Notes: generated by a model not told the origin, from the sequence alone. A stretch of 64,000 bases of DNA from Candidatus Aenigmatarchaeota archaeon (GCA_016432325.1 CP066684.1:576001-640000), one strand, 5' to 3'. Counted from the first letter of the stretch, positions 44,436 to 63,224 are shown. Made by a program: numbers and translations.

Positions 44436-44677
44436 GCTGGGGTAGCAAAGCTTGGTATGCGCCTTTTTGGGCATCTCGGAATGGAACATTCCGAGTTTTC
44501 GGACGCGGTCCGAAAACGTCCGCCCAAAAACCCGCGGGAAAAATACGCTCCCGCAAGCGACCAACTGCGCCGGATTGCTAATCCGGTGGGCGCAAGCCCG
44601 CGCGAGTTCAAGCGCCTTTTTGCTGCGGCAAAAACCCGCGGGAAAAACGGCACGAACGAATCTCGTCCCCAGCGCCA
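44436..44677 (+). tRNA. tRNA-Ser(GCT) with two BHB introns (D-loop 44459-44565; T-loop 58/59 44612-44659)
   Basis: GCTGGGG/CCCCAGC-G-CCA; CCGGA-TTGCTAA-TCCGG; BHB helices TGGT/ACCA and GTTC/GAAC. Confidence 0.9.
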
Positions 44678-44807
44678 AAAGCCTTTTACGAAAAAGCTTT
44701 GGCAAGAATATGTTACGCGCGCACAGGCAGGCCGCAACCGCTTTTATATCCTAGGCCGCACGAGAGAAACATGAACTTATGGATGCCACAAACGGGGGGG
44801 GGTTCGC

Positions 44808-46476: not shown

Positions 46477-46680
46477 GGGCCGGTAGTCTAGAAAGCTTTT
46501 CAGAAAGGCTTTAGCAAAACACGATCTGAAAGTTTGGACAATGGTTATGACGTCGCCCTATGCAAGCCGTTTCGATTGTTTGCAGACGACTACAAGGCGA
46601 AGGTCGCAAGTTCGAACCGGGCTTTTTAGAAAAAAGCACGGGTGCAAAAAACGCACGCGAGAATCTTGCCCGGCCCACCA
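46477..46680 (+). tRNA. tRNA-Val(TAC) with three BHB introns (15/16 46492-46541; 33/34 46560-46590; 59/60 46617-46663)
   Basis: GGGCCGG/CCGGCCC-A-CCA; spliced TCGCC-CTTACAA-GGCGA and GCAAG-TTCGAAT-CTTGC. Confidence 0.85.
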
Positions 46681-46715
46681 ATCCTCAATAAATACATGCA
46701 TCGATTAAACCGCTC

Positions 46716-47501
46716 ATGCTCTTCGTAGGAATCGACTTGGCGTGGTCGCCGAAGAACGGCAGCGGTCTTGCGGTGATGCGGTCCGACGGCACTTTGCAAG
46801 CGAGCGCGGTTCTGTATTCAAACGAAGAAGTTGTTGAATACGTGCACGCACAGGTTCAACAGAAGAATGCGCTGGTTGCCATAGACGCGCCGTTGGTGGT
46901 GCCGAACGAAGAAGGTCGGCGCGTCGCTGAAGCTATCGTGGGCAACCTTTTCAGAAAATACAACGCCGGCGCGCATCCTTCGAACCGCAAACGCCTGGGA
47001 CAGTGGGGAGGCCGGCCGCGCGGCGAGGTCATAACAGAGCTTCTCGGGAAGAAGGGCTTCGTCCACGACCCGTTCTTGCGGCAGCACGAAGAGTCGAGAA
47101 AGGTCTTTGAGGTCTATCCGCACCCTTCGATGGTGGTGTTGTTCAATCTCGAAACTGTCATACCGTACAAAGCGAAGCCGAAACGCAGTTACGAATCGAG
47201 ATGGAACGCTTTCGTCCAGTATCAGAAACACATGCAATCTTTGGGCAAGGCGAACCCGCCGGCGGTCCTCGGCGATATTGTAACGAAAGACGTTCGTGCG
47301 ATGAAAGGCAACGCCCTCAAGAGCTACGAGGATGCCTTGGACGCGATATTCTGCGCGTACATCGCCTACTATTACTGGTCTTTGCCGGAGAAGTGCGCCG
47401 TCCTGGGGACGATGAAAGACGGCTACATTTTAACGCCTATATTTGACCGCATGCGCGGCGCATTGAAACCCAAAGGCGTCCAGACGAAACTTACGCTCTG
47501 A
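46716..47501 (+). CDS. DUF429 family RNase H-like predicted nuclease
   Basis: GIDLAW, IDAPL, EVYPHP, EDALDA. Confidence 0.88.
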   Translation: MLFVGIDLAWSPKNGSGLAVMRSDGTLQASAVLYSNEEVVEYVHAQVQQKNALVAIDAPLVVPNEEGRRVAEAIVGNLFRKYNAGAHPSNRKRLGQWGGRPRGEVITELLGKKGFVHDPFLRQHEESRKVFEVYPHPSMVVLFNLETVIPYKAKPKRSYESRWNAFVQYQKHMQSLGKANPPAVLGDIVTKDVRAMKGNALKSYEDALDAIFCAYIAYYYWSLPEKCAVLGTMKDGYILTPIFDRMRGALKPKGVQTKLTL

Positions 47502-47970
47502 CCCATTCTCCGCGGTCGCCGTTCCTGCGTTTGTCTGCCATGGCGAGCTCGTCGAGGATACCGTCGATGAGATTGTATTTCTTCGCCTCTTCGAAAGTTA
47601 CCCAAGTGTGTTCTACGGCTTCCTCTGCCTGGAGTCTGACCTCGCCTCCTTTCCAATCGGCCATGCAGGAAATGACTATGGACGGCGAACCGTCCGCGTG
47701 TATTGTGGCCAAGCTCGTCACGTAATCAATGTTCGTTATATCCAAACCGACCTCTTCCATTACCTCGCGACGGAGCGTGCGCTCGAGAACGTTGTACCAG
47801 TATGCCTGCGTGTCTTTCGGATGCTGCGTATAGTCCGAGGTTTCGAGCTTGCCGCCCGGGACGGTCCACATGCTCGGGAAGCGTTTCTTATTCGGGTGGC
47901 GTTTTATAATCAGGTATTTCCCGTCTTTTACGACTATCGCGGTTATGACGACTTCGTGCAGATGCGACAT
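47491..47970 (-). CDS. NUDIX hydrolase
   Basis: PGGKLE...REVMEEVGL. Confidence 0.9.
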   Translation of the reverse strand: MSHLHEVVITAIVVKDGKYLIIKRHPNKKRFPSMWTVPGGKLETSDYTQHPKDTQAYWYNVLERTLRREVMEEVGLDITNIDYVTSLATIHADGSPSIVISCMADWKGGEVRLQAEEAVEHTWVTFEEAKKYNLIDGILDELAMADKRRNGDRGEWVRA

Positions 47971-48031
47971 GTTACTCCAGAAGTCTAGGCGATTCCTCGA
48001 TTTAAATACGCTTCGTCGTAAACGAGTCCGG

Positions 48032-48224
48032 GCTCCCATAGTCTAGACCGGCCAAGCTTCCCGCCCTTGCGGGGCAGGAAGAAGCCGAGAGGATCCCGCC
48101 CTTTCAAGTCAGACTTGAAAAACTGTAGGTTGTAAAACCAATGACATGGGCAGGCGGTGACTCGGGAAAGCCTTTTGAGAAATGCTCAAGGGCTTCGAGA
48201 CTTCAAATCCCGATGGGAGCACCA
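48032..48224 (+). tRNA. tRNA-Glu(TTC) with three BHB introns (D-loop 48055-48089; 37/38 48107-48151; 53/54 48167-48201)
   Basis: GCTCCCA/TGGGAGC-A-CCA; spliced CCGCC-CTTTCAA-GGCGG and TCGGG-TTCAAAT-CCCGA; BHB helices CGGC/GCCG and CTCG/CGAG. Confidence 0.88.
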
Positions 48225-48239
48225 CTAATTTTCTGTAAA

Positions 48240-48647
48240 CTAGTAGGGGAGCCGTGGCTTCCATTGGCGCGGAACACTGCCGTAATCGATGAGAGGAATG
48301 ACGTGCCTTGCATGTATTCCGTATTCTCCGGCCACCTTTCTAACAGGACCGCTGACGTCTACGAGCGGGAATTTCTTCGCCGCAATCTTTTTAGGAACTT
48401 CCACCAACGGCTTGATAGGCAGGAACTTGCTTCCTTCCTTGGGCTTGGTGTGCAGCGCGTATGCGGGTTCTGCTGTGAAATATCCTCTGGTAATGACCTT
48501 GTCGCCTGCCCAATCCTCCCCTTCGAGAATCAGGTCTGCCAGATGAATGCGCGCTCCGTATTTCTTGTGAATCGTTGCTTCCAGCGCGTCGTATGCTCGC
48601 GCCTTTTCCATGTCGCGCGGAGGTCCCCACGCGCTTTTGGTCGCCAT
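48240..48647 (-). CDS. hypothetical protein
   Basis: ORF with plausible start; no motif recognised. Confidence 0.55.
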   Translation of the reverse strand: MATKSAWGPPRDMEKARAYDALEATIHKKYGARIHLADLILEGEDWAGDKVITRGYFTAEPAYALHTKPKEGSKFLPIKPLVEVPKKIAAKKFPLVDVSGPVRKVAGEYGIHARHVIPLIDYGSVPRQWKPRLPY

Positions 48648-48708
48648 GGTTCAATTGAACATGGCAAACTATTAATACCCGGCGGTTAACGTTCGTAAAG
48701 GCGATTCC

Positions 48709-48912
48709 ATGCTCAGGATAGAAACCAGAGACGAAAAGATAGGAAACCTCGTCGGCTTCTGGGCCGGAATGGCGGTCTTCGCGAGCATGTTCTACTATCT
48801 GTCCACGAACGTCGCGCACCACGCATGGCCTATAGGATACGTGGAGCTGATGACAGCGCTCACCGTTCTTTACATAATCGCGCGATTTGCAAGAGGCGAA
48901 CTCACGATATGA
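48709..48912 (+). CDS. small 2-TM membrane protein
   Basis: ATGA-coupled to the next gene. Confidence 0.65.
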   Translation: MLRIETRDEKIGNLVGFWAGMAVFASMFYYLSTNVAHHAWPIGYVELMTALTVLYIIARFARGELTI

Positions 48913-49154
48913 GTTTCAAGGAGTTCGCAACCGGTTTCAAGTCGGGCTTCCAGGGCTTCGGCCATTTTGTCAGCGACGTTGTGAACTTCGTGCTGCTCAC
49001 GTTCGTCTGGCTCATAGGCATCGGCCCGGCGTCTGTTCTGGGCAAGTTTACAGGCAAGAAGTTCCTCGACATGGAACTCGTTATGAGAGAGAGTTACTGG
49101 GTTGCGTACGTAGTGAAGACCGAGCCGCTCGAGAGCTACGAGAAACAGTATTGA
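48909..49154 (+). CDS. SxtJ-like membrane protein
   Basis: GHFVSDVVNFVLLTFVWLIGIGP...SYW...YEKQY resembles the SxtJ C-terminal region. Confidence 0.7.
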   Translation: MSFKEFATGFKSGFQGFGHFVSDVVNFVLLTFVWLIGIGPASVLGKFTGKKFLDMELVMRESYWVAYVVKTEPLESYEKQY

Positions 49155-49162
49155 GGGATGGA

Positions 49163-50908
49163 ATGGTCAACGTTCTGGGCATATCCGCGTACTTCCACGA
49201 TTCGTCCGCGGCGCTCGTCAAGGACGGCGTCGTCGTTGCCGCAGCGGACGAGGAGCGCTTCACGCGCGTCAAGCACGACAATGCGTTTCCGATAAACGCG
49301 ATAAACTACTGCCTGAAGGAAGGAGGCGTCACCGCCGAACAAATAGACTACGTCGCGTTCTACGAAAAGCCTTTCATAAAATTCGAGCGCGTCCTGAACC
49401 AGTTCCTGCAGTCCTTCCCGAGTGGCGGATACACGTTTTACAAAGCGATGCCTCCATGGCTCACGCAAAAACTGCGCATACGCCAGACCCTGCGCAAGAA
49501 GCTCGGCTTCCGCGGACGCACGCTGTTCCTTGAACACCACATGGCCCACGCCGCGTCGTCTTATCTCGCTTCTCCGTTTGACGAGTCCGCGATACTCACC
49601 ATAGACGGCGTGGGAGAGATTACGACGGCCGCGTGCGGATACGCGAAAGGCAATGACATCACGCTGACGAGACGTCTGGAATTCCCGCACTCTCTCGGTC
49701 TTCTGTACAGTACTATAACGGCGTACCTCGGCTTCAAGGTCAACAACGACGAGTACAAGGTGATGGGTCTCGCGCCTTACGGCAAGCCGACGTACTACGA
49801 CAAGCTCCGCAAGACTCTCGCGATAGGCGAAGACGGAAGCGTCCATCTCGACATGAGATACTTCGTCTATACGAAAGAACTCTCAATGGCCGGGAAGAAG
49901 CTCTTCGAAGAGCTGGGCCCGCCACGCAAACGGGAAGAACCTGTCGAGCAGATGCACAAGGACATCGCCGCGAGCGTCCAGAAGATAACAGAGGAGGTCA
50001 TAATCAAGATGGCCCGTTCGGTTTACGAAGAAACCAAATCAAAGAACCTCTGCGTGGCGGGCGGCGTCGCGCTGAACAGCGTCGCCAACGGCAAGATTCT
50101 CAGGAGCACGCCTTTCGAGAACATCTTCATCCAGCCTTCTGCAGGCGATTCAGGAACGAGCCTCGGCGCGGCGCTCTACGCGTACAACACTATTCTGAAG
50201 AATCCGAGAAAGTACGTGCAAACGCACGCGTATCTCGGCCCCGGATATTCGCGCGACCAGATTAAGAAATATCTGGACGAGAACAAGATTGTTTACAGCG
50301 AGTTCCGTGACGAACGCGAACTCCTCCAAAAGGTCTCCAAGCTAATCTGGGAGAACAACGTCATCGGCTGGTTCCAAGGAAGGATGGAGTGGGGACCGCG
50401 CGCGCTCGGCGCCCGTTCGATTCTTTCGAATCCGTGCAACCCCGAGATGAAGGACATTCTGAACCTGAAGGTAAAGCACCGCGAAGCGTTCCGCCCTTTC
50501 GCGCCTGCCGTGTGCGTCGATGATGCGGACGAGTACTTCGAGTGCGACGTTCCCGTGCAAGCGCCTACGGACTACATGCTGATGGTCTATCCGATACGCG
50601 AAGAAAAGCGCGCGCTCTTGCCGGCGGTGACGCACGTGGACGGTTCCGGTCGTCTGCAGACAGTACGCCGCGAACAGAATCCTCTTTACTACGACCTAAT
50701 CAAAGAGTTCGGCAAGCTGAGCGGCGTTCCTGTTCTGGTAAACACGTCGTTCAACATCCGCGGAGAGCCCATCGTTTGCGAACCGCGGCACGCGTACAGA
50801 TGCATGATGGGCACTGGAATCGATTTTTTGGTCATGGATAAGTTTTTAATAGCCAGAAGTGCCAATCCGAAGGACATGTGGGACAGCGAAAAGGTAGCGG
50901 GCGATTAA
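49163..50908 (+). CDS. O-carbamoyltransferase (CmcH/NodU/SxtI family)
   Basis: GISAYFHDSSAAL, EERFTRVKH, HHMAHAAS, EYKVMGLA, GPRALG, NTSFN. Confidence 0.95.
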   Translation: MVNVLGISAYFHDSSAALVKDGVVVAAADEERFTRVKHDNAFPINAINYCLKEGGVTAEQIDYVAFYEKPFIKFERVLNQFLQSFPSGGYTFYKAMPPWLTQKLRIRQTLRKKLGFRGRTLFLEHHMAHAASSYLASPFDESAILTIDGVGEITTAACGYAKGNDITLTRRLEFPHSLGLLYSTITAYLGFKVNNDEYKVMGLAPYGKPTYYDKLRKTLAIGEDGSVHLDMRYFVYTKELSMAGKKLFEELGPPRKREEPVEQMHKDIAASVQKITEEVIIKMARSVYEETKSKNLCVAGGVALNSVANGKILRSTPFENIFIQPSAGDSGTSLGAALYAYNTILKNPRKYVQTHAYLGPGYSRDQIKKYLDENKIVYSEFRDERELLQKVSKLIWENNVIGWFQGRMEWGPRALGARSILSNPCNPEMKDILNLKVKHREAFRPFAPAVCVDDADEYFECDVPVQAPTDYMLMVYPIREEKRALLPAVTHVDGSGRLQTVRREQNPLYYDLIKEFGKLSGVPVLVNTSFNIRGEPIVCEPRHAYRCMMGTGIDFLVMDKFLIARSANPKDMWDSEKVAGD

Positions 50909-50909
50909 T

Positions 50910-51059
50910 ATGGGAATGGCAAGCGAACTCGTCGGATTTTTGGTGAAAGAGAAGAAGTGGTGGCTCGTTCCGGCGGTCGTGCTGCTGCTCGTCGTCGGAA
51001 TACTGATAATATTTGCCGCAGCTTCGCCTGTCTCGCCCTTCATCTACGCGCTGTTCTGA
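50910..51059 (+). CDS. SxtK/DUF5989-like small membrane protein (49 aa; absent from ORF track)
   Basis: MGMASELVGFLVKEKKWWLVPAVVLLLVVGILIIFAAASPVSPFIYALF. Confidence 0.85.
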   Translation: MGMASELVGFLVKEKKWWLVPAVVLLLVVGILIIFAAASPVSPFIYALF

Positions 51060-51181
51060 CGATGAGCCCGTTAAATGCCTTCAAGCCGTGTTTCTGACCA
51101 AAACCTTTATATAGCCCCCCAGCGCCCTTTAAAACGTACTTTACGCGGTTCGATAATTCAGAAACAAACGGGGGTGAAATG

Positions 51182-51346
51182 ATGGCTGTTATAGTTAAGA
51201 GCGCGGTCAAGGACTGCTGCAAGGGTTTCAACGTCAGCGCAGACTTCTACGGCGCGTTGGACTCTTCTGTGCAGAACGTGATAAAGGCCGCTTCGAAGCG
51301 CGCGTCGGCAAACGGTCGCAAGACCGTGCAGGCGAGAGACCTTTAA
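51182..51346 (+). CDS. small histone-fold protein (54 aa; absent from ORF track)
   Basis: SD GGGGTGA; MAVIVKSAVKD...NVSADFYGALD...RASANGRKTVQARDL. Confidence 0.88.
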   Translation: MAVIVKSAVKDCCKGFNVSADFYGALDSSVQNVIKAASKRASANGRKTVQARDL

Positions 51347-51409
51347 TTAAGACAGAACCTCGGGGTTCTCCGTCTTTTCTTTTTTATTCTCCTTTTTTCC
51401 ATTGTTCTT

Positions 51410-51751
51410 ATGCCCGGACAAGGAACCGCGTTCCACCATCTGCACAAGCGCATTCGCGTCCACAAGAAGCTCGAGAAGTATCCGCACCCGGACAGGCTCA
51501 CGAATGCAATGGACAAGCTCATCTACGTGGTGTCCATAATAATGCCGCTTCTGACCGTGCCTCAGGTGCTGACTGTTTGGTTGGACGGAAATGTTTCCGG
51601 ACTGTCTCTGGTTACTTGGGTGTCGTATCTCGTCGCGTCCGTATTCTGGCTGGCTTACGGAATTCTGCACAGGGAGAAGCCGATTATCATATCGAACGTC
51701 CTGTGGATAGTGGTGTTCGCGTTTATCGTCGTTGGAATAATGATGCGCTAG
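51410..51751 (+). CDS. SemiSWEET/PQ-loop family transporter
   Basis: TVPQV, SGLSLVTW, WLAYG, PIIISN. Confidence 0.85.
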   Translation: MPGQGTAFHHLHKRIRVHKKLEKYPHPDRLTNAMDKLIYVVSIIMPLLTVPQVLTVWLDGNVSGLSLVTWVSYLVASVFWLAYGILHREKPIIISNVLWIVVFAFIVVGIMMR

Positions 51752-51754
51752 AAG

Positions 51755-53494
51755 TTAGCCGCCTGACGTCTCGCCGCCACCGGATTCTCCGCCAGTCTCT
51801 TCGCCTCCTGATCCTCCAGAGTCTCCTCCAGATTCGCCTCCGCTAGAATCTCCTCCGCCTTCGGATCCTCCTGTTTCTCCGCCTCCCTGTTCGCCGCCGG
51901 ACGGGGTCGTGTACCCTTCAGGCGTCTGATATCCTTCAGGAGACTGGTAACCCTCTGGCGACTGGTAGCCTTCGGGGGATTGGTAGTTCGGATATTCGCC
52001 ACCTTGTGGAGTCTGGTAGTACTGGCCTTGCTCGCCTCCCGGATAACCGCCCTGGCCCTGCTGGTAACCTTCAGGGCATCCTTCGGGCGGACACTGGAAC
52101 CCTTCCTCATAGCCCGGTCCGCCTGGCTGGCCTGGTCCGGGTCCCTGACCGTATTGTCCCTCCTGTTGCTGGCCGAACCCACAGCTCTCCGGATTCGATT
52201 GACAATAAGACTGGCAGTCCTGCGGCGCAACGCCTGCAGACTGGCAAGCGCTCAGCGCCTTTCCAAAGTCTCCGCCGCCTTCTCCTTCAGGCGGTCCGAA
52301 ACCGCATTCTGTCGGGTTGTTCTCGCAGAAGCTTCGACAGTCACTCGTTGAGATTCCTCTTGACTTGCACGCTTCAAGAGCGCCTCTTGCCTCCTCTGGA
52401 ATCTCGATGCCGCACGCCTCTGGGTCGTTCTCGCAGTAGTTTCGGCAGTCGTCCTGCGACAATCCTTTCTCCTTGCATATCCTCATGATGCCTGCGACGT
52501 CTATTCCCTGTGACTTTGCATTCTGGAAATCTTCGTATTCAGAATCGCTCATGAATCCCACGTCGTGCGACCATTCGACGCACTCTTCGATGTTATCCGG
52601 CTCCTGGCAGTACTCCTCGCAGTCGCGGCCCGTACATCCGCCCGGACCGACGCCGCCTGCCTCGGCGAACTTCTTGGCCATCTCATACTCCTCGTCGCCC
52701 ATGAATCCTATTTCGTGGGCCCACTCGACGCATTCAAGCATGTTGTCGGGATTCTCGCAAAACGCTTCGCAGTCGCGGCCTGTGCAGCCGCCGGGCCCTC
52801 TTCCACCGCTCTCGGCGAACTTCTTGGCAAATTCGTAATCTTCGTCGCTTATCTCTCCCAACTCGTGGGCGAACTCGACGCACGCGAGCATGTTGTCCGG
52901 ATTGTCGCAGAAGGCCTCGCATTCGCTCAGCCTGCAACCGCCAGGACCGACGCCACCGCGTTCAATCATCTTCTTCGCCATGCGCGCGTCCTCTTCGTCC
53001 ATGAAGCCCGCCTTTATCGCGAACTCTATGCATGCTTCCGCGTTGTCCGTATCGTCGCAATAAATTCGGCACTCCTCTTCGTTCGAGCAGCCTCCGGGGG
53101 TCTCGCCTCTCTGTATATACGGCAGGAGTTCCCGCGCATCTTCCAGCTCTTCGGCTGTCATGAGCCCGTTCTCCTCCGCGTAGTCGAGACAGGCTCCCAT
53201 ATTATCCGGGTCAGAGCAGTACGTTCTGCACTCGTCCTCGCTCGAACAACCGCCCAAAGCGGCTATGGACTGGTCGACTCCGGCTCCTGAAACGGTCGAT
53301 TCGATATCGTGCGTCTCGGCGAATGCAGAGCACGCGCCCCAGTTGGCCGGCTCGTTGCAGTACGTCCGGCACTCGTCTTCTGAGGCGCAGCCCCCCAGCT
53401 CCGAGACGGGGAACGTTACGTCGGAAGTTTGCGCGTGGACGTACGTTATGGAAAGCAGGAACGCGAATGCCGCGAAAAACAGTATGCGCTTCAT
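51755..53494 (-). CDS. secreted Cys-rich repeat protein with Gly/Glu/Ser-rich tail
   Basis: signal peptide; repeated GGC..(E/D)C..(Y/F)C..P.N...C units; SPEGYQ tandem repeats. Confidence 0.85.
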   Translation of the reverse strand: MKRILFFAAFAFLLSITYVHAQTSDVTFPVSELGGCASEDECRTYCNEPANWGACSAFAETHDIESTVSGAGVDQSIAALGGCSSEDECRTYCSDPDNMGACLDYAEENGLMTAEELEDARELLPYIQRGETPGGCSNEEECRIYCDDTDNAEACIEFAIKAGFMDEEDARMAKKMIERGGVGPGGCRLSECEAFCDNPDNMLACVEFAHELGEISDEDYEFAKKFAESGGRGPGGCTGRDCEAFCENPDNMLECVEWAHEIGFMGDEEYEMAKKFAEAGGVGPGGCTGRDCEEYCQEPDNIEECVEWSHDVGFMSDSEYEDFQNAKSQGIDVAGIMRICKEKGLSQDDCRNYCENDPEACGIEIPEEARGALEACKSRGISTSDCRSFCENNPTECGFGPPEGEGGGDFGKALSACQSAGVAPQDCQSYCQSNPESCGFGQQQEGQYGQGPGPGQPGGPGYEEGFQCPPEGCPEGYQQGQGGYPGGEQGQYYQTPQGGEYPNYQSPEGYQSPEGYQSPEGYQTPEGYTTPSGGEQGGGETGGSEGGGDSSGGESGGDSGGSGGEETGGESGGGETSGG

Positions 53495-53746
53495 CTATCC
53501 ACCTGAGAACGGGTTTTTGTATCCGTACGGATTGGCCTCGTCAAAGGCGTTCGTATCCGGTATCTTGTTGGTCGCCTCGAACGTTTGGCCCAGTTTCTCC
53601 GTGCCTGCGCCGAACGAAAGGTCGGGCAGGAACAGGCCGTTGCCTCCCGCACCGCCTAAAAGGAAGTAGCCGGCGCCTATCAGAATGACGATGCCGACAG
53701 CTACTATGGCTATTGTAGGTATCTTCTTGCCCTGTTTTTCAGCCAT
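53495..53746 (-). CDS. small single-TM protein
   Basis: N-terminal TM; NPY/NPF tail; abuts the Cys-rich gene. Confidence 0.65.
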   Translation of the reverse strand: MAEKQGKKIPTIAIVAVGIVILIGAGYFLLGGAGGNGLFLPDLSFGAGTEKLGQTFEATNKIPDTNAFDEANPYGYKNPFSGG

Positions 53747-53853
53747 CGAATCTCCTTTATATCGCACTTATAAAAAGCTTTAGAACGGCTATATCGCAGC
53801 GCGGGGGTTCAGGAAACGCAAGCGTTTCAACACCCCCTCGCCTCGAAGTGCAT

Positions 53854-54093
53854 GCGGGGGTTCCGTAGCTTGGTCAATCCCTGAACGGCATTCAAATTTC
53901 CGTTCCGGGAACGAAAAACGGGGGGGACTTAAGTTTGCCGACTTAAGTGCTGAGACACGACGTCTGTGAAAAGAAATCCCCTGGCCTAGCGCCTTCGCAG
54001 GTTCAAACCGGGCTTTCTTTAAAAAGAAAGCACGGGTGCAAAGAAACTCCGGCTTCCGCCATGATGCCGGCGAGAATCCTGCCCCCCGCACCA
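53854..54093 (+). tRNA. tRNA-Leu(TAA) with three BHB introns (D-loop 53877-53916; 37/38 53934-53975; 59/60 54008-54076)
   Basis: GCGGGGG/CCCCCGC-A-CCA; spliced GGGGA-CTTAAGA-TCCCC; Leu variable arm; GCAGG-TTCAAAT-CCTGC. Confidence 0.85.
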
Positions 54094-54122
54094 TTTTTAT
54101 TCTACACCTACCAAATTACGCC

Positions 54123-54287
54123 ATGCCCGTCGCATCAGAACGCCACGTCCACAACAAGAGGAACTGCCGCGCGTTCGTCTCGAGGCACATCAAGGCGCAC
54201 GTGAAAGAAGGCATGCCGCAGAGGCAGGCCGTCGCAGCAGCCCTTTCAGAAGCCCGTCGGTTGGGATGCAAAATCAGCAAGCAGTAA
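54123..54287 (+). CDS. small basic protein
   Basis: VSRHIK...EGMPQRQAVAAALSEARR, a motif typical of small phage-like basic proteins. Confidence 0.6.
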   Translation: MPVASERHVHNKRNCRAFVSRHIKAHVKEGMPQRQAVAAALSEARRLGCKISKQ

Positions 54288-54289
54288 CG

Positions 54290-54682
54290 TCATCTCCGCG
54301 CCGTCTTCAGGCCCCAGACGTACATCATCACAAGGATGGCGACCGCGGCCAGCGCATACTTGGCGAACATGCTCTGAACGACGTAGATTGAGATGCCCAT
54401 TCCTATCGCTATCGCGATGACAGCCGCCTTCTTTGCCCCGAGTGTCATCTGTTTTCTCTTGTAGTTCCTTATCGCCGGTCCGAAGCGGCTTGCCATCAGA
54501 CGGCGATGCAGACGCTTGGACGACTTGGCGAACATGAGCGCAGAGAGGAACAGGAAGTCCGTTCCCGGAACGACGGGCAGAAAGAGTCCTGCCACGCCGA
54601 TGATAAAGAAAAGGATTCCCAGCAAAAGGAAAACCTTCTTTTTGACAGAGCCGAGAATATTCATGAACCCGCCTCGCGTCAT
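54290..54682 (-). CDS. DUF454/YbaN family membrane protein
   Basis: GVAGLFLPVVPGTDF...FAKSSKRLHRRL...FGPAI. Confidence 0.88.
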   Translation of the reverse strand: MTRGGFMNILGSVKKKVFLLLGILFFIIGVAGLFLPVVPGTDFLFLSALMFAKSSKRLHRRLMASRFGPAIRNYKRKQMTLGAKKAAVIAIAIGMGISIYVVQSMFAKYALAAVAILVMMYVWGLKTARR

Positions 54683-54818
54683 TCTTGGCGCCGCCTATTT
54701 ATATCGCGTTGGCAGGCGAGACCCGGAAATGTTGAAATAGAAGCAGTCTTTACAGCAGAAGGGGCTGACGCGAAGGGCGCATATTTAAATAAGCGAAACA
54801 GTATATCCACGCGATAGC

Positions 54819-55505
54819 ATGGGACGTGATAGCATGGGTCTTCTACGGGCGCTCTTCGGTTCGGATGAGGAGAAACTGGCGACACGGAGGGCAACGGCCA
54901 GACGCGATGCCGCACGGTCCGCGGCTGCGAGCATATCATTGGCGCGCAAGGATATAGAAACCGGCAACTTCCATCATTATGCGCGCGCTGAGATTCCCTC
55001 CGACATGTGGGAGCTGAACGAGCTGGATCGAGCGGAACTATGCCTTACAGGCAGCGGTCTTCAGATATCTCCAGAGATAGCCGAATTGAGGAAGACGGCC
55101 ATATTGGCTCGCATGGCTTCCGTAGTAGAGGAGACACTGAAGGCCGAGGATAGTTGTCTCCGATTTCGTCTTGAAGATATCGAGGAGACCACTACCATCG
55201 CGTCGAAGGCAGGCGTACCACTGACGCGCGAGTTCGAGACCGTAGAAATGCAGGCGTTAAGTAGGATTGTCAACTATCACCTCAAGGATTATTGGTACAA
55301 TATGCACGATGGTTGGTATGGGGTTCGGCCCTCAAGCGCCTCTAGTAATGTCCAAGCCGCTCAATACTACATAATGAAAGGAAGGCTGCCTGTTCCAGAG
55401 GAATTCTTTGTTAAACGTGATGCTCTCGAGGAGTTCTTGATGAAGCACAAGAACGTGCTTGCCAAACTCGCTCCCTACGAAGAAAAGCGTAAGAGCGCCG
55501 CCTGA
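54819..55505 (+). CDS. hypothetical protein
   Basis: long ORF with upstream TATA; no motif recognised. Confidence 0.6.
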   Translation: MGRDSMGLLRALFGSDEEKLATRRATARRDAARSAAASISLARKDIETGNFHHYARAEIPSDMWELNELDRAELCLTGSGLQISPEIAELRKTAILARMASVVEETLKAEDSCLRFRLEDIEETTTIASKAGVPLTREFETVEMQALSRIVNYHLKDYWYNMHDGWYGVRPSSASSNVQAAQYYIMKGRLPVPEEFFVKRDALEEFLMKHKNVLAKLAPYEEKRKSAA

Positions 55506-55560
55506 GGCTTCTGCAACCACGCGATATTGAAATAGCTCTTCCTCCAATCAATCGTCGGGT

Positions 55561-56649
55561 GTGCGCTTGAGAATCGTTATGATGGTCGATTTGGATTACT
55601 TCTACGCCCGCGTGGAAGAGAACAGGAGGCCCGAGCTGAAGGGCAAGCCCGTGGTCGTGGGAATGTATTCCGGACGAACGGAAACGAGCGGCGCGGTGGC
55701 GACGTGCAACTATGAGGCTCGCAAATACGGCGTGCGCTCCGGCATTCCGCTCTTCCGCGCAAAAGCGCTTCTGAAAGATGCCCCGAACGCCGTCTTCCTG
55801 CATCCGGATTTTGACGAGTACGAACGCGTGTCGAATAATGTGATGGAGATTCTGCGCAAGCACGCCGAGAAATTTGAGCAGGTAAGCATAGACGAGGCCT
55901 TCCTAGACGTGAGCGACGCGTGCAAGAGCTACGGCGAGGCCGAGAAGCTCGCGAAACAGATAAAGCATGAGATTCTGAAGCAGGAGAACGTGACCTGTTC
56001 CGTAGGCATAGGCCCGAACAAGGTCGTCGCAAAGATGGCCTCGAAACTGCAGAAGCCCGACGGTTTGACGGTCGTGCGCGCAGAAGAATTTGCAAAAACG
56101 TTTGGAGACAAACCCGTGCGCGAGCTTTACGGCATAGGCCCGAAGACCGTTGAGAAACTGGCGGAGATAGACGTCGAGAGCATCGGAGAGCTGGCGCAGA
56201 CCGGCCTGAAACAGCTGCAATCGATTTTCGGGGAGAAGCTCGGGGCGTACTTTCATAACGCTGCGCGGGGCGTAGACGAAGAGGCTGTCGAAGAGAAGGA
56301 GCAGAAGCAGTTCGGCCGCATCGTCACGCTCAAGAAAAACGCGCGGAACGTCAAAGATTTTGAAGATGTGATAGACGAGCTTTCCAAAGACGTCGTTCGC
56401 ATGTGCGCGGAGAAAGGCTTCGAGTTCAAGAACGTCGGCCTGTTCGCTGTGATGGAAGATATGGAAAATGTCACGCGCTCGCGGACTCTTGACGACTTCG
56501 CCACAGACTGGAAGCTCGTCGCGTCTGTAACGAAAGAACTCTACGAGAATCTTCTGAAGGACAGCTCCAAGTCGATAAGGCGCGCCGGCGTACGGGTAGC
56601 GACGCTGAGGAAGAAGGGGGAAGGCCTTAAGAAATTCTTTAAGGGTTAA
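55561..56649 (+). CDS. dinB: DNA polymerase IV (Y-family, Dpo4/DinB)
   Basis: VDLDYFYA, NYEARKYGV, SIDEAFLD, KPDG. Confidence 0.95.
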   Translation: MRLRIVMMVDLDYFYARVEENRRPELKGKPVVVGMYSGRTETSGAVATCNYEARKYGVRSGIPLFRAKALLKDAPNAVFLHPDFDEYERVSNNVMEILRKHAEKFEQVSIDEAFLDVSDACKSYGEAEKLAKQIKHEILKQENVTCSVGIGPNKVVAKMASKLQKPDGLTVVRAEEFAKTFGDKPVRELYGIGPKTVEKLAEIDVESIGELAQTGLKQLQSIFGEKLGAYFHNAARGVDEEAVEEKEQKQFGRIVTLKKNARNVKDFEDVIDELSKDVVRMCAEKGFEFKNVGLFAVMEDMENVTRSRTLDDFATDWKLVASVTKELYENLLKDSSKSIRRAGVRVATLRKKGEGLKKFFKG

Positions 56650-57153
56650 ATGCTTTTGCACGCAATGGAGAGCATGCGATTCTTGGACGGGGCAGAAGCA
56701 GTTGAAGCCGAACGGTTCACCGCGGAAGCCGTGACTGTTGCGAGGCGTTCTCCCTGCGAGAAATCCAAGCGCGGAGTCATCATAGTCAGCGACAGCGAAG
56801 TGATAGGCCGCGGGTACAACAAGCCGCCTGCGGACGTGCCGTGCGTCGAGGAGTTCTGCGGCCTGATATGCAGGAAATATTGCGTTCACGCCGAGACGAA
56901 CGCCGTAATGGACGCGCTGCGCGGCGGCCATGAACTGAAGGGCTCAAGAGGCTATCACATCAAGGTGAAGGGCGGCGCCGTGCGAGATTCCGACGACCTC
57001 TCTTGCGTGCCGTGCGCCGCGCTCGTGCTGGAAAGCGGAATGGGTGAGTTCGTCCTCAAACATCCCCGCGGATTCGCGGTCTATGGCGCGCGGGAGTTCT
57101 ACGAACTGTCGTTAGACGCCTTTATTAGGCAGAAAAGCTCCAATGGTAAGTGA
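56650..57153 (+). CDS. dCMP deaminase-like Zn deaminase
   Basis: SPC, GYN, VHAETNA, SCVPC. Confidence 0.8.
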   Translation: MLLHAMESMRFLDGAEAVEAERFTAEAVTVARRSPCEKSKRGVIIVSDSEVIGRGYNKPPADVPCVEEFCGLICRKYCVHAETNAVMDALRGGHELKGSRGYHIKVKGGAVRDSDDLSCVPCAALVLESGMGEFVLKHPRGFAVYGAREFYELSLDAFIRQKSSNGK

Positions 57154-57380
57154 TTGCAATGTGCTTCACGAAACAGCAGCTCTGGACCGTCGCAGCCGTG
57201 ATTTTCGGCTTGGTGACGTTGCTTCACGCCCTTCGGCTCGCCAACAACTGGGCTGCGCAGATAGGCCCTTACGTTATACCGATTTGGTTCAGCTGGATTG
57301 CTGTCGCCGTTGCAGCGTACCTCGCATACGAGTTCTGGAAGCATTCCGGAGAGAAACCGGCCAAGAAAGGAAGGAAGTAA
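57150..57380 (+). CDS. small 2-TM membrane protein
   Basis: IFGLVTLLHALRL...IPIWFSW. Confidence 0.75.
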   Translation: MIAMCFTKQQLWTVAAVIFGLVTLLHALRLANNWAAQIGPYVIPIWFSWIAVAVAAYLAYEFWKHSGEKPAKKGRK

Positions 57381-57424
57381 TGAAACCGTTGTTTCAAACT
57401 TTCTTCGTATGTCTCGGAAAGTAG

Positions 57425-57892
57425 TCAGCGTTCCCTGAGTCCTTTCTCCCGCGCGATGGTCTTCATGGCCTTGAGTATTCTTGCCTTGCTCACTTCGTCC
57501 GCTTTCTCGAAAACAGACCTCAACTCGTGGTCGTGCTCTTTGTAGAGCCCTGTCCAGTGCCTCTCGACACGAGACTGACTATAGTCCTGGACTTCTCCGG
57601 ACAGAGCGCCTCTCTGGTGATCGTAACCCGCGAGCTTCAGCAGCTCTTCCTTTTCGGACGGGCTGCAGCCGTAGAACTTCAGGGCGGTCGCAAGGAATTC
57701 GTAGGACGGCCTGCCGGGAACGCCGTCGTGGCCGCGGCCTGTTTCTATGTTGTATATGTGGGCTGTGGAGACTCCTACCTGTTTCGCCACGACCTCGCGC
57801 CTCATGCCCAAGTCTTCGCGCTTGACGCGCAGCAGTTTGCCTAGGCGTATCAGCTCTTTCGCATGGCGCCTGTTGTAAGCCCTGAGTCCCAT
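57425..57892 (-). CDS. XRE-family HTH regulator
   Basis: LGKLLRVKRE...VAKQVGVSTAHIYNIETG. Confidence 0.8.
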   Translation of the reverse strand: MGLRAYNRRHAKELIRLGKLLRVKREDLGMRREVVAKQVGVSTAHIYNIETGRGHDGVPGRPSYEFLATALKFYGCSPSEKEELLKLAGYDHQRGALSGEVQDYSQSRVERHWTGLYKEHDHELRSVFEKADEVSKARILKAMKTIAREKGLRER

Positions 57893-58091
57893 TCCAGCAC
57901 CATAGCCATTAACCGCAGGAAGCAATTTAAACCGGACGGGCGCGCCGTTTGAACGTATTTAAAGACTGTACGCGAATCGGAGTACGGTGCTGACAATGCG
58001 CGGTGTTAGTCTTCATCCGGGAATGTAGGAAACCTGTTAGCCGCGCATATTCGAATTCTGAAGTTATAAACTCTGCCTGCGAGGTGTCTCT

Positions 58092-59357
58092 ATGACCCAG
58101 TCGCCTAAAGGCACGCAGGACTTCGGTCCCAAGGAAGCGATGGCGCGTGGCGAAATGATAGGCGCGCTCAGGCAGGTATTCCAGCTCTACGGCTTCGAGC
58201 CTCTCGAAACGACGTCTCTTCAGAACTTCGAGGTTCTCTCTTCAAAGTACACAGGCGGCGCGGAGATTCTCAAGGAGACTTACAAGCTCGAAGACCAAGG
58301 CGGGCGCAAGCTCGGATTGCGATACGATCTCACGGTCCCTCTCGTGCGCTTCATGGCCGAGAACCGTTCGCTCGCCAAGCCGTTCAAGCGCTACGAGATA
58401 GGAAAGGTGTGGCGCGACGGCCCTCTCAAGGCCGGGCGCTATCGCGAATTCATGCAGGTCGACGCTGACGTCATCGGCGTAACGAGCGTCGCTGCCGAGG
58501 CCGAACTGCTGGCGATGGCCCAGACGTTTTTCAAGGCGCTGGGAATCGACGCTGTGATAAAGTACAACAACCGGAAGGTTCTGAACGGCCTGCTCAAGAA
58601 GTTCAGCATTCCCGAACGCGAGTGGAATGGCGTGCTCCAGAGCATGGACAAGCTCGAGAAGATGGGGCGCGCTTACGTGGAGAAGGAACTCACGGAGAAA
58701 GGCGTCGACAAGGGCGTGGCCAAGGACGTCGTGGAGATTATAGCAAAGACCAAGGACCTCGAGCTGCTCACAGGCGTCATAGACAACGACGTCGGAAGGA
58801 AAGGCATCGAAGAGCTTCTGGCGCTGCAGGAGTATCTGGTCTATCTCGGCGTCGATACGGCAGAGTGGGACCTTTCGCTTTCGCGCGGTCTGGATTACTA
58901 CACAGGCACGGTCTTTGAGGCGTTCTTTACCGGAGGGAAAGTAACGTCTTCGATAGCCGGCGGCGGCCGTTATGACAAGATGATAGGCGCGCTCATCGGC
59001 TCAAAGGAAGACGTGCCGGCGGTCGGCATTTCGTTTGGTCTTGACGCGATACTGGACGGCTTTGCGCTGGAGCGCGAGCGAACGATAACGCGCGTGCTTG
59101 TCGTCCCTATAAACGCTCTGGACTACGCTCTCACTGTCGCGCAGGCGATCCGCGCGTGGAACGTAAATACTGAAGTCGACATGATGAACCGTAACTTGTC
59201 AAAGAACCTTGACTACGCGAACAAGAAAGGAATTGCGCGTGTGATAATAGTAGGAGAGAAGGAGAAGAAAGAGCAGACCGTTACATACAAGGATATGGAG
59301 AGCGGCAAGCAAGAAACAGACACGTTAGAAAAACTGAAGAAGAGAATAGTTTCGTAG
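58092..59357 (+). CDS. hisS: histidyl-tRNA synthetase
   Basis: PKGTQDF, LRYDLTVP, GRYREFMQ, RGLDYYTG, GGGRYD. Confidence 0.96.
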   Translation: MTQSPKGTQDFGPKEAMARGEMIGALRQVFQLYGFEPLETTSLQNFEVLSSKYTGGAEILKETYKLEDQGGRKLGLRYDLTVPLVRFMAENRSLAKPFKRYEIGKVWRDGPLKAGRYREFMQVDADVIGVTSVAAEAELLAMAQTFFKALGIDAVIKYNNRKVLNGLLKKFSIPEREWNGVLQSMDKLEKMGRAYVEKELTEKGVDKGVAKDVVEIIAKTKDLELLTGVIDNDVGRKGIEELLALQEYLVYLGVDTAEWDLSLSRGLDYYTGTVFEAFFTGGKVTSSIAGGGRYDKMIGALIGSKEDVPAVGISFGLDAILDGFALERERTITRVLVVPINALDYALTVAQAIRAWNVNTEVDMMNRNLSKNLDYANKKGIARVIIVGEKEKKEQTVTYKDMESGKQETDTLEKLKKRIVS

Positions 59358-59365
59358 ATACGGAT

Positions 59366-59594
59366 GGCTGCGGTGGTGTTAGCCTGGATAACACGCTTTT
59401 TCAAAAAGTGTGAGAAGCCAGCAAGCATGCAGGCCTGTGGTCCGAGCTTTTGAGAAAAAGCTCGAGCAAAAACGACGAAGCCACGGACAGATAGCCTGAG
59501 GGGCGAGTTCAAACCGGGCTTTTCTTTCGCAAAGAAAAGCACGGGTGCAAAAGAAACTTTTGCGCCCACCGTGAAATTCTCGCCCGCGGCCCCA
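59366..59594 (+). tRNA. tRNA-His(GTG) with encoded G-1 and three BHB introns (D-loop 59390-59423; 37/38 59441-59492; 59/60 59514-59577)
   Basis: G-GCTGCGG/CCGCGGC-C-CCA; CAGGC-CTGTGGA-GCCTG; BHB helices CTGG/CCAG, CTGT/ACAG, TTCA/TGAA. Confidence 0.9.
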
Positions 59595-60813: not shown

Positions 60814-61549
60814 AATTTCAAGACTAAAGTTTTGAAATAAAACTGACTCTGCAAGGGTCAGTGTTCACCGCACTTACCATAACGCAAGTTGTGGTAGGGC
60901 TTGGAAAGAAAGTTTCGAGATTTTCTGGTAAACAGAAAACTTGAAAACGGATTTTCAAGACAATTCCAATAGAAAGTGTGCAGTTAACTCCCAATCGAAG
61001 TTCTCGTACTGTTGATGAAATATCGTAGGACCTACTTTGAGACAGAGCGTTGTTAGGGATAACAGACGCTGGGAACATACGTTCGATTGAAATAATTCTG
61101 GTTGATCCCGCCAGAGGTCACTGCTATCTGGATCCGATTAAGACATGCTAGCCGAGTGCGAAAGCACGGCAGACGGCTCAGTAACACGTAGTCAACCTGC
61201 CCTCAGGTAGGGGATAACCCCGCGAAAGTGGGACTAACACCCTATGGGGAAAAGATACTGGAATGTTCTTTTCCTGAAAGGCAACGCCTGAGGATGGGAC
61301 TGCGGCGGATTAGGCTGTTGTTGGGGTAAAGGCCCAACAAACCTATAATCCGTACGGGCGTTGAGAGACGTAGCCCGGAGATGGGCTCTGAGACAAGAGC
61401 CCAGGCCCTACGGGGCGCAGCAGTCGCGAAACCTTTACAATGGCTTCACGGCCGATAGGGGGATCCAGAGTGAGTGCGCAATGCGTACTCTTTTGCCGAG
61501 TCTAAACAGCTCGGAGAATAAGGGGTGGGCAATACGAGTGCCAGCCGCC

Positions 61550-61593
61550 ATCTTGCGTAGGACGGAAACTTTTCCGCCCTTGCGGGACGGAAA
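61550..61593 (+). other. 16S intron at 526/527 (44 nt)
   Basis: interrupts GCCAGCCGCC|ACGGTAA; hairpin with relaxed BHB GCCG/CGGA. Confidence 0.8.
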
Positions 61594-61626
61594 ACGGTAA
61601 TACTCGAGCCCCGAGTGGTGACCACG

Positions 61627-61657
<31 letters not shown>

Positions 61658-61978
61658 GGACAAGTTCCTAGTGAAATCCTGCGTTAAACGCGGGGCGTGC
61701 TGGGAAGACTGTCCGGCTTGGGACCGGGAGACGTTAGCAGTACTCCAGGGGTAAGGGTAAAATCTTATCATCCTTGGAGGACTACCTGTGGCGAAGGCGG
61801 CTAACGAGAACGGCTCCGACGGTGAGGGACGAAAGCGTGGGGAGCAAATGGGATTAGATACCCCAGTAGTCCACGCTGTAAACGATGCCCCCTTGATGTC
61901 GCGTCTTCTTCGGGAAGACGCGGTGTCGTAGAGTAGTTGTTAAGGGGGCCGCCTGGGGAGTACGGCCGCAAGGTTGAA

Positions 61979-62021
61979 ACTCAGCAGAACGTTCGTTCTG
62001 AACGTTCGTTGCGAGCAACGA
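61979..62021 (+). other. 16S intron at 908/909 (43 nt)
   Basis: canonical BHB GTTG-AA|A ... CAAC-GA|A. Confidence 0.9.
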
Positions 62022-62340
62022 ACTTAAGGGAATTGGCGGGGGAGCACTTCAAGGGGTGGAGGCTGCGGTTCAATTGGATTCAACGCCAGACATTTTACCA
62101 GGGGTGACAGCAGGATGAAGGTCAGTCTGAAGGGCTTACCTGACGCGCTGAGAGGAGTTGCATGGCCATCGTCAGCTCGTACCGTGAGGCGTGCGCTTAA
62201 GTGCGTTAACGAGCGAGACCCACGCCCTCTGTTGCTATCTTGTCCTCCGGGATGAGAGCACTCTGAGGGGACCGCCGGCGATAAGTCGGAGGAAGGAGTG
62301 GGCGACGGTAGGTCCGTATGGCCCGAATCTCCTGGGCTAC

Positions 62341-62862
62341 ACCGAGTCCAGGCTAGCGAGGAAGAGCAAATGTTTTGGAACGAAAGTTTCAGGATACGTT
62401 GAACCGTTTTTGATTGTGCTAACGGCATGCTACTTACGAAAGTAATAGTATATCCGTCACGCACAAACCTTTACATGAACCCTGATTTAGCATATCTGAT
62501 AGGTCTCATCGGAGGCGACGGTTCGCTGACTTACAAGAAAGGAAGCGAATACCGTGTCTCAGTCGTTGACGAGTGCTTGGAATTTCATGAGCACGTCGTC
62601 AAACCTACAATGGATGCGACTTTCAACAAAGCCGCGTACGAATATCCGCGCGTCGCTCTGCAGGTTGCAAACAGTGGTATCAGAAACGAATTGGTCGAAC
62701 TTCTGAAGAGGTTTGGCATCGCACCGAGCGTTTGGAAGTACAAGCAAATGTTCGGTTTGCAAATAATCGGTTTCGATAAGGTTAGGCTGTATTCAGAGAA
62801 TGTCGGTTTTCGGCATCCCTCGAAACAGAAACGGTTGCTCGAGCTGCTTGGCTTGGGGCCTA
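62341..62862 (+). mobile_element. 16S intron at 1226/1227 (522 nt) carrying a homing endonuclease ORF
   Basis: BHB GGCT-AC|A ... GGCC-TA|A; splicing restores GGGCTACACGCGG. Confidence 0.9.
62475..62862 (+). CDS. LAGLIDADG homing endonuclease, probably degenerate; no stop inside the linear intron
   Basis: LAYLIGLIGGDGSL motif; LLKRFGI; GFRHPSKQKRL; second LAGLIDADG helix not seen. Confidence 0.8.
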
Positions 62863-63116
62863 ACGCGGCCTACAATGACCCGGACAAAGAGTTGCCACGC
62901 CGAAAGGCGGAGCCAATCTCTAAACCGGGCCTTAGTTCGGATTGAGGGTTGAAACTCACCCTCATGAAGCCGGAATCCCTAGTAAGCGGGTGTCACTATC
63001 ACTCGCTGAATACGACCCTGCTCCTTGCACACACCGCCCGTCAAGCCATGCGAGTGTTCCCTTGATGAGGCTTGGGTTATTGCCCAGGACGAATCGAGGG
63101 GACGCGAGCGGGGCTA

Positions 63117-63224
63117 ATCTCAAGGAGTTCATCTCAGAACAAGATGATTAAACTGGCTTGACTCTGACAAAATATGAGGAGTCTTGGAGGTGGAATGATT
63201 GCTTGAGAGCTCCTGGGAGCCTAG
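63117..63224 (+). other. 16S intron between A1492 and A1493 (108 nt)
   Basis: BHB GGGC-TA|A ... GCCT-AG|A; splicing restores GGGCTAAGTCGTAAC. Confidence 0.88.
63144..63198 (+). ncRNA. putative intron-encoded box C/D guide RNA
   Basis: C ATGATTA, D' CTGA, C' ATGAGGA, D ATGA; D' guide TGGCTTGAC complementary to 16S 63040-63048. Confidence 0.65.

Follow-up and report, generated by a model that had tools for sequence, protein, structure and literature searches.

Three tRNA genes of one archaeal genome carry T-loop introns in which a purine tract repeats the purine arm of an upstream hairpin in mirror order, and we asked what keeps the two tracts in step. The genes lie in a 64,000-nt stretch (the window) of Candidatus Aenigmatarchaeota archaeon (GCA_016432325.1 CP066684.1:576001-640000), a groundwater archaeon with a genome of 875 kb. 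We favor, with a probability of roughly 0.55, the reading that the mirror covariation reflects a selected fold-back three-stranded structure in the module of a spreading family of bulge–helix–bulge (BHB) tRNA introns.

The module consists of a GC-clamped pyrimidine/purine hairpin (tracts Y and R), a short GC-rich spacer, and a purine tract mirroring the purine arm of the hairpin (third tract, R′). As a mirror of the purine arm, the third tract is also the parallel complement of the pyrimidine arm. The following features were assigned (positions counted from the first letter of the window):

44617–44647, plus strand: module of type F3 in the T-loop intron of tRNA-Ser(GCU); Y 44617–44621 (T5), R 44630–44634 (A5), an 8-nt GC palindrome, R′ 44643–44647 (A5)
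46477–46680, plus strand: tRNA-Val(UAC) gene with three introns (D-loop, anticodon loop at about 33/34, T-loop 59/60), by hand reading
46492–46541 (approximate boundaries), plus strand: D-loop intron of tRNA-Val with an F2-type module, by comparison with other F2 copies; Y 46497–46500 (T4), R 46504–46507, R′ 46516–46519 (A4)
46617–46663, plus strand: T-loop intron of tRNA-Val, family F1; Y 46623–46627 (T5), R 46630–46635 (A6), R′ 46646–46651 (A6)
53854–54093, plus strand: class II tRNA-Leu gene, probably UAA, with multiple introns, by hand reading, internal exons partly assigned
54008–54076, plus strand: T-loop intron of tRNA-Leu, family F1; Y 54014–54020 (T3CT3), R 54023–54029 (A3GA3), R′ 54040–54046 (A3GA3)
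59367–59594, plus strand: tRNA-His(GUG) gene with three introns (about 25/26, 37/38, 59/60), by hand reading
59441–59492, plus strand: canonical 37/38 intron of tRNA-His with an F2 module; Y 59448–59451 (T4), R 59455–59459, R′ 59468–59472 (A5)
59514–59577, plus strand: T-loop intron of tRNA-His, family F1; Y 59520–59527 (T4CT3), R 59531–59538 (A3GA4), R′ 59549–59556 (A4GA3); fold z = −5.6

All three multi-intron genes (Val, Leu, and His) were missed by ARAGORN and Rfam searches of the window. By hand reading, the anticodons were UAC in tRNA-Val and GUG in tRNA-His; the anticodon of tRNA-Leu, probably UAA, is less certain. The 5′ acceptor strand of tRNA-Val begins at 46477, CCA occupies 46678–46680, and the D-arm is canonical once 46492–46541 is taken out. 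Intron removal restored the T-arm and a 7-nt T-loop in all three genes. A preliminary description of this DNA had placed homologous introns at tRNA position 59/60 in Val, Leu, and His; positions and tracts proved to be as claimed, including the offset of the G from the GC anchor (3 nt in Leu, 4 nt in His), and the His boundary was fixed exactly by the uninterrupted tRNA-His of a genome of the same genus (G001). The 5′ end of tRNA-Leu has a 10-nt duplicate at 53801–53810.

The junction folded as a 3-4-3 BHB, made up of the T-stem, two 3-nt bulges, and a 4-bp helix between T54–57 and the 3′ end of the intron. In MFE folds of five copies the central helix had 3–4 bp, with three standard pairs in Val and Leu; the Val T-loop intron folded into the T-stem, an H helix, HP1, and a 4-bp HP2, the 7-nt loop of which is R′. 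One EndA protein of 201 aa with domains PF02778 and PF01974 was encoded at genome positions 849760–850362 on the minus strand, and a second EndA homolog was not found there. Judging from the folds, the Val, Leu, and His elements are bulge–helix–bulge introns and predicted substrates of the archaeal splicing endonuclease. An ORF adjoining endA was considered as a beta subunit and rejected, as it showed no similarity.

A scan of the whole genome, which the preliminary description had proposed, revealed a family larger than the one claimed: the Val, Leu, and His introns belong to family F1, with 10 copies in 10 different tRNA genes and 85–96% identity over the module. The head, hairpin, GC block, and third tract are shared by 10/10 copies. 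Nine of the 10 are located at 59/60; the tenth, in tRNA-Ser(UGA), interrupts the canonical 37/38 position. Judged by these likenesses, the 10 copies are one recently spreading family. F1 relatives were present in other families of the same order, while the module itself was found throughout this DPANN class. Type F3 has a second copy at genome position 700574, its first copy (44617–44647) lying outside the range of the preliminary description. The module had also been described there as ORF-less and mobile, and several observations agree with movement or turnover. At the exact 59/60 site that is filled in the host genome, tRNA-His of G001 has an intact T-arm, and this two-genome comparison indicates a recent gain or loss, in either direction; the 37/38 intron, with tracts T5/A5/A5 in G001, is shared. 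Insertions occur at two site types (59/60 and 37/38), and the host genome and G001 carry a subvariant, with G as the first nucleotide of the head, in tRNAs that are not orthologous. The order Y–R–R′ is read in the tRNA sense in 10/10 F1 copies and in about 80% of the sampled modules; others are antisense to the host tRNA (for example, inverted pairs within one intron of genome G033), and modules were also seen just beyond tRNA 3′ ends and behind a protein gene. We failed to find HUH, RT, or TnpB genes in this genome; the co-occurring HUH or RT enzyme envisaged earlier was thus not found here. One module copy is flanked by a 16-nt duplicate of the 3′ end of tRNA-Leu(CAA).

The spacer before the third tract was 10 nt long in F1 and ranged over 7–17 nt in relatives; part of it pairs with other segments. 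The preliminary reading of this 10-nt GC-rich "palindrome" as a stem of its own does not hold: nucleotides 1–6 of the block pair with the intron head, where a G·A mismatch is conserved and compensatory changes occur, and the last 4–5 nt pair with a downstream segment, where compensatory changes were found as well. Because the end of the GC block pairs downstream, the third tract forms the 5′ part of the loop of the second hairpin. Both HP1 and HP2 show compensatory changes and G·U pairs that work on the sense strand only. In the fold, Y and R′ begin at about the same height above the junction and are parallel to each other. The HP2 loop of Val is only the 7-nt tract, so that hairpin and triplex are mutually exclusive there. 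The third tract of His can pair in the fold with a downstream pyrimidine run. In a MAFFT alignment, the hairpin arms fell out of register.

Only about four copies of this genome are informative on mirror versus direct repetition, and the covariation was assessed in relatives. A full copy of the tract was sought ≤30 nt downstream of the hairpin in the sampled loci, which cover 14 distinct core types. Among 175 asymmetric T-rich hairpins, 29 were followed by the mirror copy only, 2 by the direct copy only, and 2 by both; with permuted downstream regions the count averaged 4.6 and never exceeded 12 in 2000 permutations, against the 29 observed. The class-wide search found T4CT2 hairpins followed by A4GA2 414 times in 131 genomes, with 14 in the backwards control. 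The direct tract followed 126 such hairpins, about 111 of them within symmetric A4GA4 tracts, which leaves a net of about 300 mirror only versus about 15 direct only. For the reciprocal core, strict T2CT4 hairpins followed by A2GA4 occurred in 53 copies from 23/271 genomes and 15 genera, and the direct tract in 3; the copies are related by descent, and all these counts therefore overstate the number of independent events. Cores with several C residues track too (T3CTCT4 with A3GAGA4, T4CT3CT with A4GA3GA), and so do the lengths of pure T/A tracts. The host genome holds three exceptions: in c2 a 44-nt insert disrupts the hairpin and the third tract is unchanged, in c5 one C of the Y tract is unpaired, and at genome position 849754 a T5 hairpin is combined with an A3GA2 third tract. 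Single mismatches in third tracts, which bear on purine versus pyrimidine motif since T opposite A-T fits the purine motif only, were seen in a few cases. With relatives counted, the claim that the third tract changes with the hairpin in the mirror sense stands far beyond chance.

The test named in the preliminary description, mirror tract against alternative Watson–Crick partner, favors the mirror (29:2 and 53:3). A helix switch in which the third tract pairs with the pyrimidine tract would be feasible in the commonest variant, T3CT3, where the third tract equals the purine arm and a 7-bp alternative helix can form, and the downstream pairing of the His third tract also fits it. However, direct repeats would be expected from a helix switch, and an unchanging tract from a conserved A-rich motif independent of the hairpin, whereas the tract flips with the hairpin in all three comparisons; mirror tracts in asymmetric cores moreover lose at least 2 bp of Watson–Crick potential. 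The reciprocal T4CT2 and T2CT4 counts thus exclude the fixed-motif and alternative Watson–Crick readings, which we rate as very improbable. Mirror symmetry might also arise from a protein reading hairpin and third tract together, or from a templated mutational process, the module then being a protein-binding or insertion signal. The triplex is itself predicted from sequence only, and the mobile-like duplications at the tRNA-Leu(CAA) 3′ end (16 nt) and at the Leu 5′ end (10 nt) hint at enzyme-mediated insertion. Against such a cause stand the lack of HUH, RT, and TnpB genes among those found in the genome and the base-by-base tracking over 14 core types, which is the prediction of direct base contacts; further, we know of no protein or polymerase mechanism that gives non-complementary mirror repeats, and we consider this origin improbable.

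We know of no cause other than a triple helix for mirror symmetry of this kind. The fold-back three-stranded structure that we favor would form in the single-stranded state and be under selection, the Y–R–R′ strand as an intrastrand triplex of class II and the complement strand as one of class IV. Its seat may be RNA or DNA, in the latter case the non-template strand or an intermediate of mobility, and we lean slightly towards DNA. Nearly all copies here read Y–R–R′ in the tRNA sense, a strand that allows just the purine motif, and triplexes of this motif reportedly fail to form in RNA and owe their stability to G·G-C triads (Holder et al. 2015, PMC4666352). Against a triplex count the A/T-rich tracts with 0–2 G, the F1 spacer, longer (as in relatives) than the 1–6 nt loops that define intrastrand triplex motifs such as class II in the ITxF search, and the position of the third tract at the RNA level in the loop of a second hairpin with compensatory changes and G·U pairs. 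These last features fit an RNA-level tertiary module, in which the A-rich third tract would dock along the Y/R helix of a three-way junction, whether in the pre-tRNA or, after excision, in the (circular) intron, via base triples or minor-groove contacts, and either stiffen the junction to present the BHB to the endonuclease or stabilize the intron. The prevailing tRNA-sense orientation, the sense-strand-only pairs of HP1 and HP2, and the parallel course of Y and R′, which is the geometry a third strand needs, all speak for it. However, modules antisense to the host tRNA, in inverted pairs, after tRNA 3′ ends, or after a protein gene speak against it, the HP2 loop of Val is too short to reach along HP1, and the reported failure of purine-motif triplexes in RNA applies here as well; we regard this explanation as unlikely. 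Under the favored triplex reading, what inserts into tRNA genes would be the module, which may survive there because the endonuclease can excise it. A more general proposal is tentative and, on balance, doubtful: ORF-less elements with a selected intramolecular triple helix, class-wide and probably DPANN-wide, would insert into tRNA genes and seed BHB introns, the triplex being the recognition or intermediate structure of insertion.

Non-canonical archaeal BHB tRNA introns, including those at 59/60, are known from ARMAN-2 (Fujishima et al. 2011, PMC3239211), and intron "transposition" has been described among tRNA genes of Thermoproteales (Fujishima et al. 2010, cited in PMC4090602). Like those introns, the present ones are protein-spliced, occupy the T-loop and other sites, occur several per gene in genes invisible to standard tRNA finders, and have near-identical copies in non-orthologous tRNAs; closely similar introns in tRNAs of different identity, the hallmark in Thermoproteales, were found here too. 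Unlike them, they contain the three-tract module with mirror covariation, a feature not described in those papers. The lineage is a DPANN class rather than Thermoproteales, and the one EndA gene found is of the alpha type, whereas alpha-beta or epsilon types are those linked to relaxed motifs. Bacterial intrastrand triplex motifs comprise class II PIT elements, BoxC, and TMECO (Hoyne et al. 2000; Holder et al. 2015, PMC4666352). As in class II, one strand of the module runs from a pyrimidine arm through a purine arm to a mirror purine tract; like the bacterial motifs, it is a multi-copy dispersed repeat, and its complement strand has a pyrimidine-motif layout. TMECO, which forms a triplex in vitro (PMC4666352), is a bacterial intergenic repeat rich in G/C with second loops of 3 nt, whereas the module is A/T-rich, has a 7–17 nt spacer, is archaeal, lies mostly in tRNA introns, and is known from sequence alone. 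It departs from the G/C-rich consensus of TMECO and BoxC, and the resemblance is architectural only, with no sequence homology.

In ENE/MALAT1-type RNA triple helices, built of U·A-U with C+·G-C triples, two U-rich strands clamp an A-rich strand. The antisense strand of the module, which the preliminary description likened to them, likewise combines a purine tract with two pyrimidine tracts in suitable orientation, whereas in the sense transcript a single U-rich tract is accompanied by two A-rich ones and there is no poly(A)-type 3′ end to protect. No published description of the mirror module was found in the literature searched, and within that literature the earlier view of an undescribed system holds.

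To our knowledge, archaeal tRNA intron gain at new positions has been called "transposition" from similarity of sequence, with the mechanism lacking. Here a spreading unit can be defined, a hairpin and mirror tract of about 45 nt that covaries over hundreds of copies in many families, and one insertion (His 59/60) is polymorphic between two congeners. If the covariation does reflect a triple helix, it would be the first natural triplex backed by comparative covariation at this scale, also the first in archaea and within introns, and would give a concrete handle on intron gain; if the insertion reading is true, it would supply a physical basis for archaeal "intron transposition".

Contigs compared at the locus yielded no intron-less allele; they broke at the repeat, and paralogous copies cross-mapped. 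An exact 16-nt scan of genome contigs gave chance matches only, and one contig labelled Ca. Burarchaeum was not module-like. No RNA sequencing run was listed with the locus; it was present in four groundwater DNA runs, which may be where this DNA came from, all from one study.

The genome (G000) consisted of one contig of 874,869 bp with 56% GC, and window DNA was contained in four groundwater metagenome runs, all from one study. ARAGORN with introns allowed found 10 tRNA genes in the whole genome and no more, and the Val, Leu and His genes of the window were missed by the Rfam tRNA model even at E = 10; thus, most tRNA genes of this archaeon are multiply interrupted. The three genes were reconstructed by hand, and their homologous T-loop introns were confirmed in the sequence with the coordinates and tracts assigned to them in the preliminary description.

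Interrupted genes (window coordinates) and heads of the intron family F1 (genome coordinates)
46477–46680: tRNA-Val(UAC), three introns, hand reconstruction
46617–46663: T-loop intron of tRNA-Val, between T-loop positions 59 and 60
53854–54093: tRNA-Leu, class II, hand reconstruction
54008–54076: T-loop intron of tRNA-Leu, between T-loop positions 59 and 60
59367–59594: tRNA-His(GUG), three introns, hand reconstruction
59514–59577: T-loop intron of tRNA-His, between T-loop positions 59 and 60
61095–63272: intron-bearing 16S rRNA gene, 2178 nt vs. a 1478-position model, i.e., ~700 nt of insertions (introns)
F1 heads: 25964 (−), 29930 (−), 32627 (−), 204326 (+), 545543 (+), 622617 (+), 630008 (+), 635514 (+), 741056 (−), 829840 (+)

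The F1 family comprised 10 copies in the genome, nine at site 59/60 and one (32627) in tRNA-Ser(UGA), where it occupies the canonical position 37/38. Each carries a module: a hairpin of a pyrimidine and a purine arm, a GC-rich block and a third purine tract, for which mirror covariation with the hairpin had been proposed. Within this genome alone, the evidence for the mirror relation is thin. The commonest F1 variant is self-mirror; the informative copies, namely c3 and c8 (T4CT3 with A4GA3), c10 (T3CT2 with A3GA2) and one of the further module type F2 (TCT3 with AGA3+), were mirror in 4/4, and Val has lost the C-G pair along with the G of the third tract. Exceptions were c2, c5 and the copy at 849754.

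The genomes of relatives settle the mirror relation. The same architecture, with other clamps and spacers, was found throughout the host DPANN class. Loci were sampled by hairpin pattern or intron similarity, never via the third tract; among their 175 asymmetric T-rich hairpins, which included 14 distinct core types (T3CTCT4 and T4CT3CT among them), a full mirror copy only followed 29, a direct copy only 2 and both 2, although module copies share descent and neither these nor the following counts represent independent events. Shuffling the downstream regions between hairpins (2000 trials) gave a mean of 4.6 and a maximum of 12. In whole genomes, 414 cases of A4GA2 behind a T4CT2 hairpin were counted, spread over 131 genomes, and the backwards control gave 14; the direct tract took that place in 126 cases, ~111 of which lay within symmetric A4GA4 tracts. 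Reciprocally, A2GA4 was seen 53 times behind the strict T2CT4 hairpin, in 23/271 genomes from 15 genera and at least 9 families, compared with 3 occurrences of the direct tract. Pure T/A tracts match in length: T4 with A4, T5 with A5, and T6 with A6. Together, the reciprocal results and the sampled loci show that the third tract flips with the hairpin, which excludes a fixed A-rich motif. An alternative Watson–Crick partner of the pyrimidine arm is also excluded, as it would favour direct repeats; the tract follows the hairpin as its mirror image, as claimed.

When a third purine tract mirrors a purine arm without being complementary to it, the symmetry is the hallmark of intramolecular triplexes, and neither an enzymatic process nor a symmetry of proteins that yields mirror repeats is known to us. 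Selection for a three-stranded fold is therefore the best available explanation of the covariation; a triple helix in the module is plausible but unproven. The order of pyrimidine arm, purine arm and third tract corresponds to a class II intrastrand triplex, and its complement to class IV (Holder et al. 2015, PMC4666352). Such triplex repeats are known from bacteria (Holder et al. 2015), as are non-canonical bulge-helix-bulge introns, including 59/60 in ARMAN-2 (Fujishima et al. 2011, PMC3239211), from archaea. The tRNA-intron module combines these two known kinds; the searchable literature yielded no account of a covarying, triplex-type module within archaeal tRNA introns.

Minimum free energy folding gave a consistent structure over five F1 copies. 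The T-stem runs on into a 4-bp helix, T54–R57 paired with the intron 3′ end, with a 3-nt bulge on each side; this 3-4-3 bulge-helix-bulge motif encloses a three-way junction. The hairpin of the preliminary description was recovered but proved longer (HP1): the intron head is also paired, its partners being the six leading bases of the GC-rich block, with a conserved G·A mismatch in between. Compensatory changes support this head pairing: C-G to G-C in c1 and the congener G001, and C-G to A-T in the relatives G004/G013. In a second hairpin (HP2), the final 4–5 bases of the block are paired with sequence farther downstream, again with compensatory changes (C-G to G-C in G004/G013, G-C to C-G in c5) and with G·U pairs. 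In the HP2 loop, the third tract makes up the 5′ portion and, in Val, all 7 nt. Despite abundant non-canonical introns, the only detectable splicing endonuclease (EndA) was a single alpha-type protein of 201 aa (encoded within G000:848284–851562); a second subunit was not detected in the genome, and the ORF adjoining endA (180 aa) matched no Pfam family and showed no resemblance to EndA.

The predicted three-stranded fold may form in RNA, given that every F1 copy and about four-fifths of the sampled modules lie in tRNA sense and that the helices flanking the module are clearly selected on that strand. However, RNA is reported to be unable to form the purine motif (Holder et al. 2015), in Val the HP2 loop lacks the length to hold both hairpin and triplex, and modules also occur in antisense, as inverted pairs in one intron (relative G033), at tRNA ends and behind a protein gene. 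On the complement, a pyrimidine motif would fit the A/T-rich tracts better than a purine motif would on the sense strand, and the sense bias could also result from avoiding additional oligo-T terminator-like runs. Of the initial interpretation, covariation and mobility stand; the antisense-RNA reading is unsupported.

Movement or turnover of the module is supported by an empty site: the tRNA-His ortholog of G001 has an uninterrupted T-arm and keeps the 37/38 intron, the insert relative to it being exactly 64 nt (59514–59577). Furthermore, the F1 head variant with an initial G occupies different host tRNAs in the two genomes. A co-occurring HUH or RT enzyme, named as something to look for, was not found: the genome yielded neither a Y1-HUH transposase nor a reverse transcriptase gene, and a TnpB gene was likewise not found. 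Spread of introns among tRNA genes is already known (Fujishima et al. 2010, as cited in PMC4090602). The 37/38 intron of tRNA-His, of F2 type, is conserved between the congeners; the ~25/26 intron is unrelated in sequence, with only its last 6 nt in common.

F2 modules also occur in the Val D-loop intron and further introns, and one directly follows the endA stop codon. Another lies antisense directly 3′ of tRNA-Leu(CAA) (genome 683061–683105; locus G000:682850–683300), bracketed by 16-nt direct repeats of the tRNA 3′ end, an arrangement resembling integration or target duplication. A third type, F3, is the T-loop intron of tRNA-Ser(GCU) (window 44617; gene region 44540–44680), with the layout T5, A5, 8-nt GC palindrome, A5; the same gene contains, ~100 nt farther upstream, a partial palindrome copy flanked by A5 runs. 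In G033, a T-loop intron contains two modules in opposite orientation with adjacent third tracts; both direct-repeat cases of the sample are the sense-strand view of an inverted copy in such pairs.

A duplicate of the initial 10 nt of tRNA-Leu lies 53 nt upstream (window 53801–53863), and the two copies flank a small hairpin of non-triplex type with a 7-bp stem; the arrangement resembles an insertion bounded by repeats at the 5′ end of the tRNA. At window 54272–54332 (minus strand), the C/D-box sRNA model sR35 matched weakly, far under the gathering score (15.8 bits, E 5.7); the C, D′, C′ and D boxes could be recognised. The rRNA regions are preceded upstream by identical 6-bp hairpins at genome positions 636921 and 643714.
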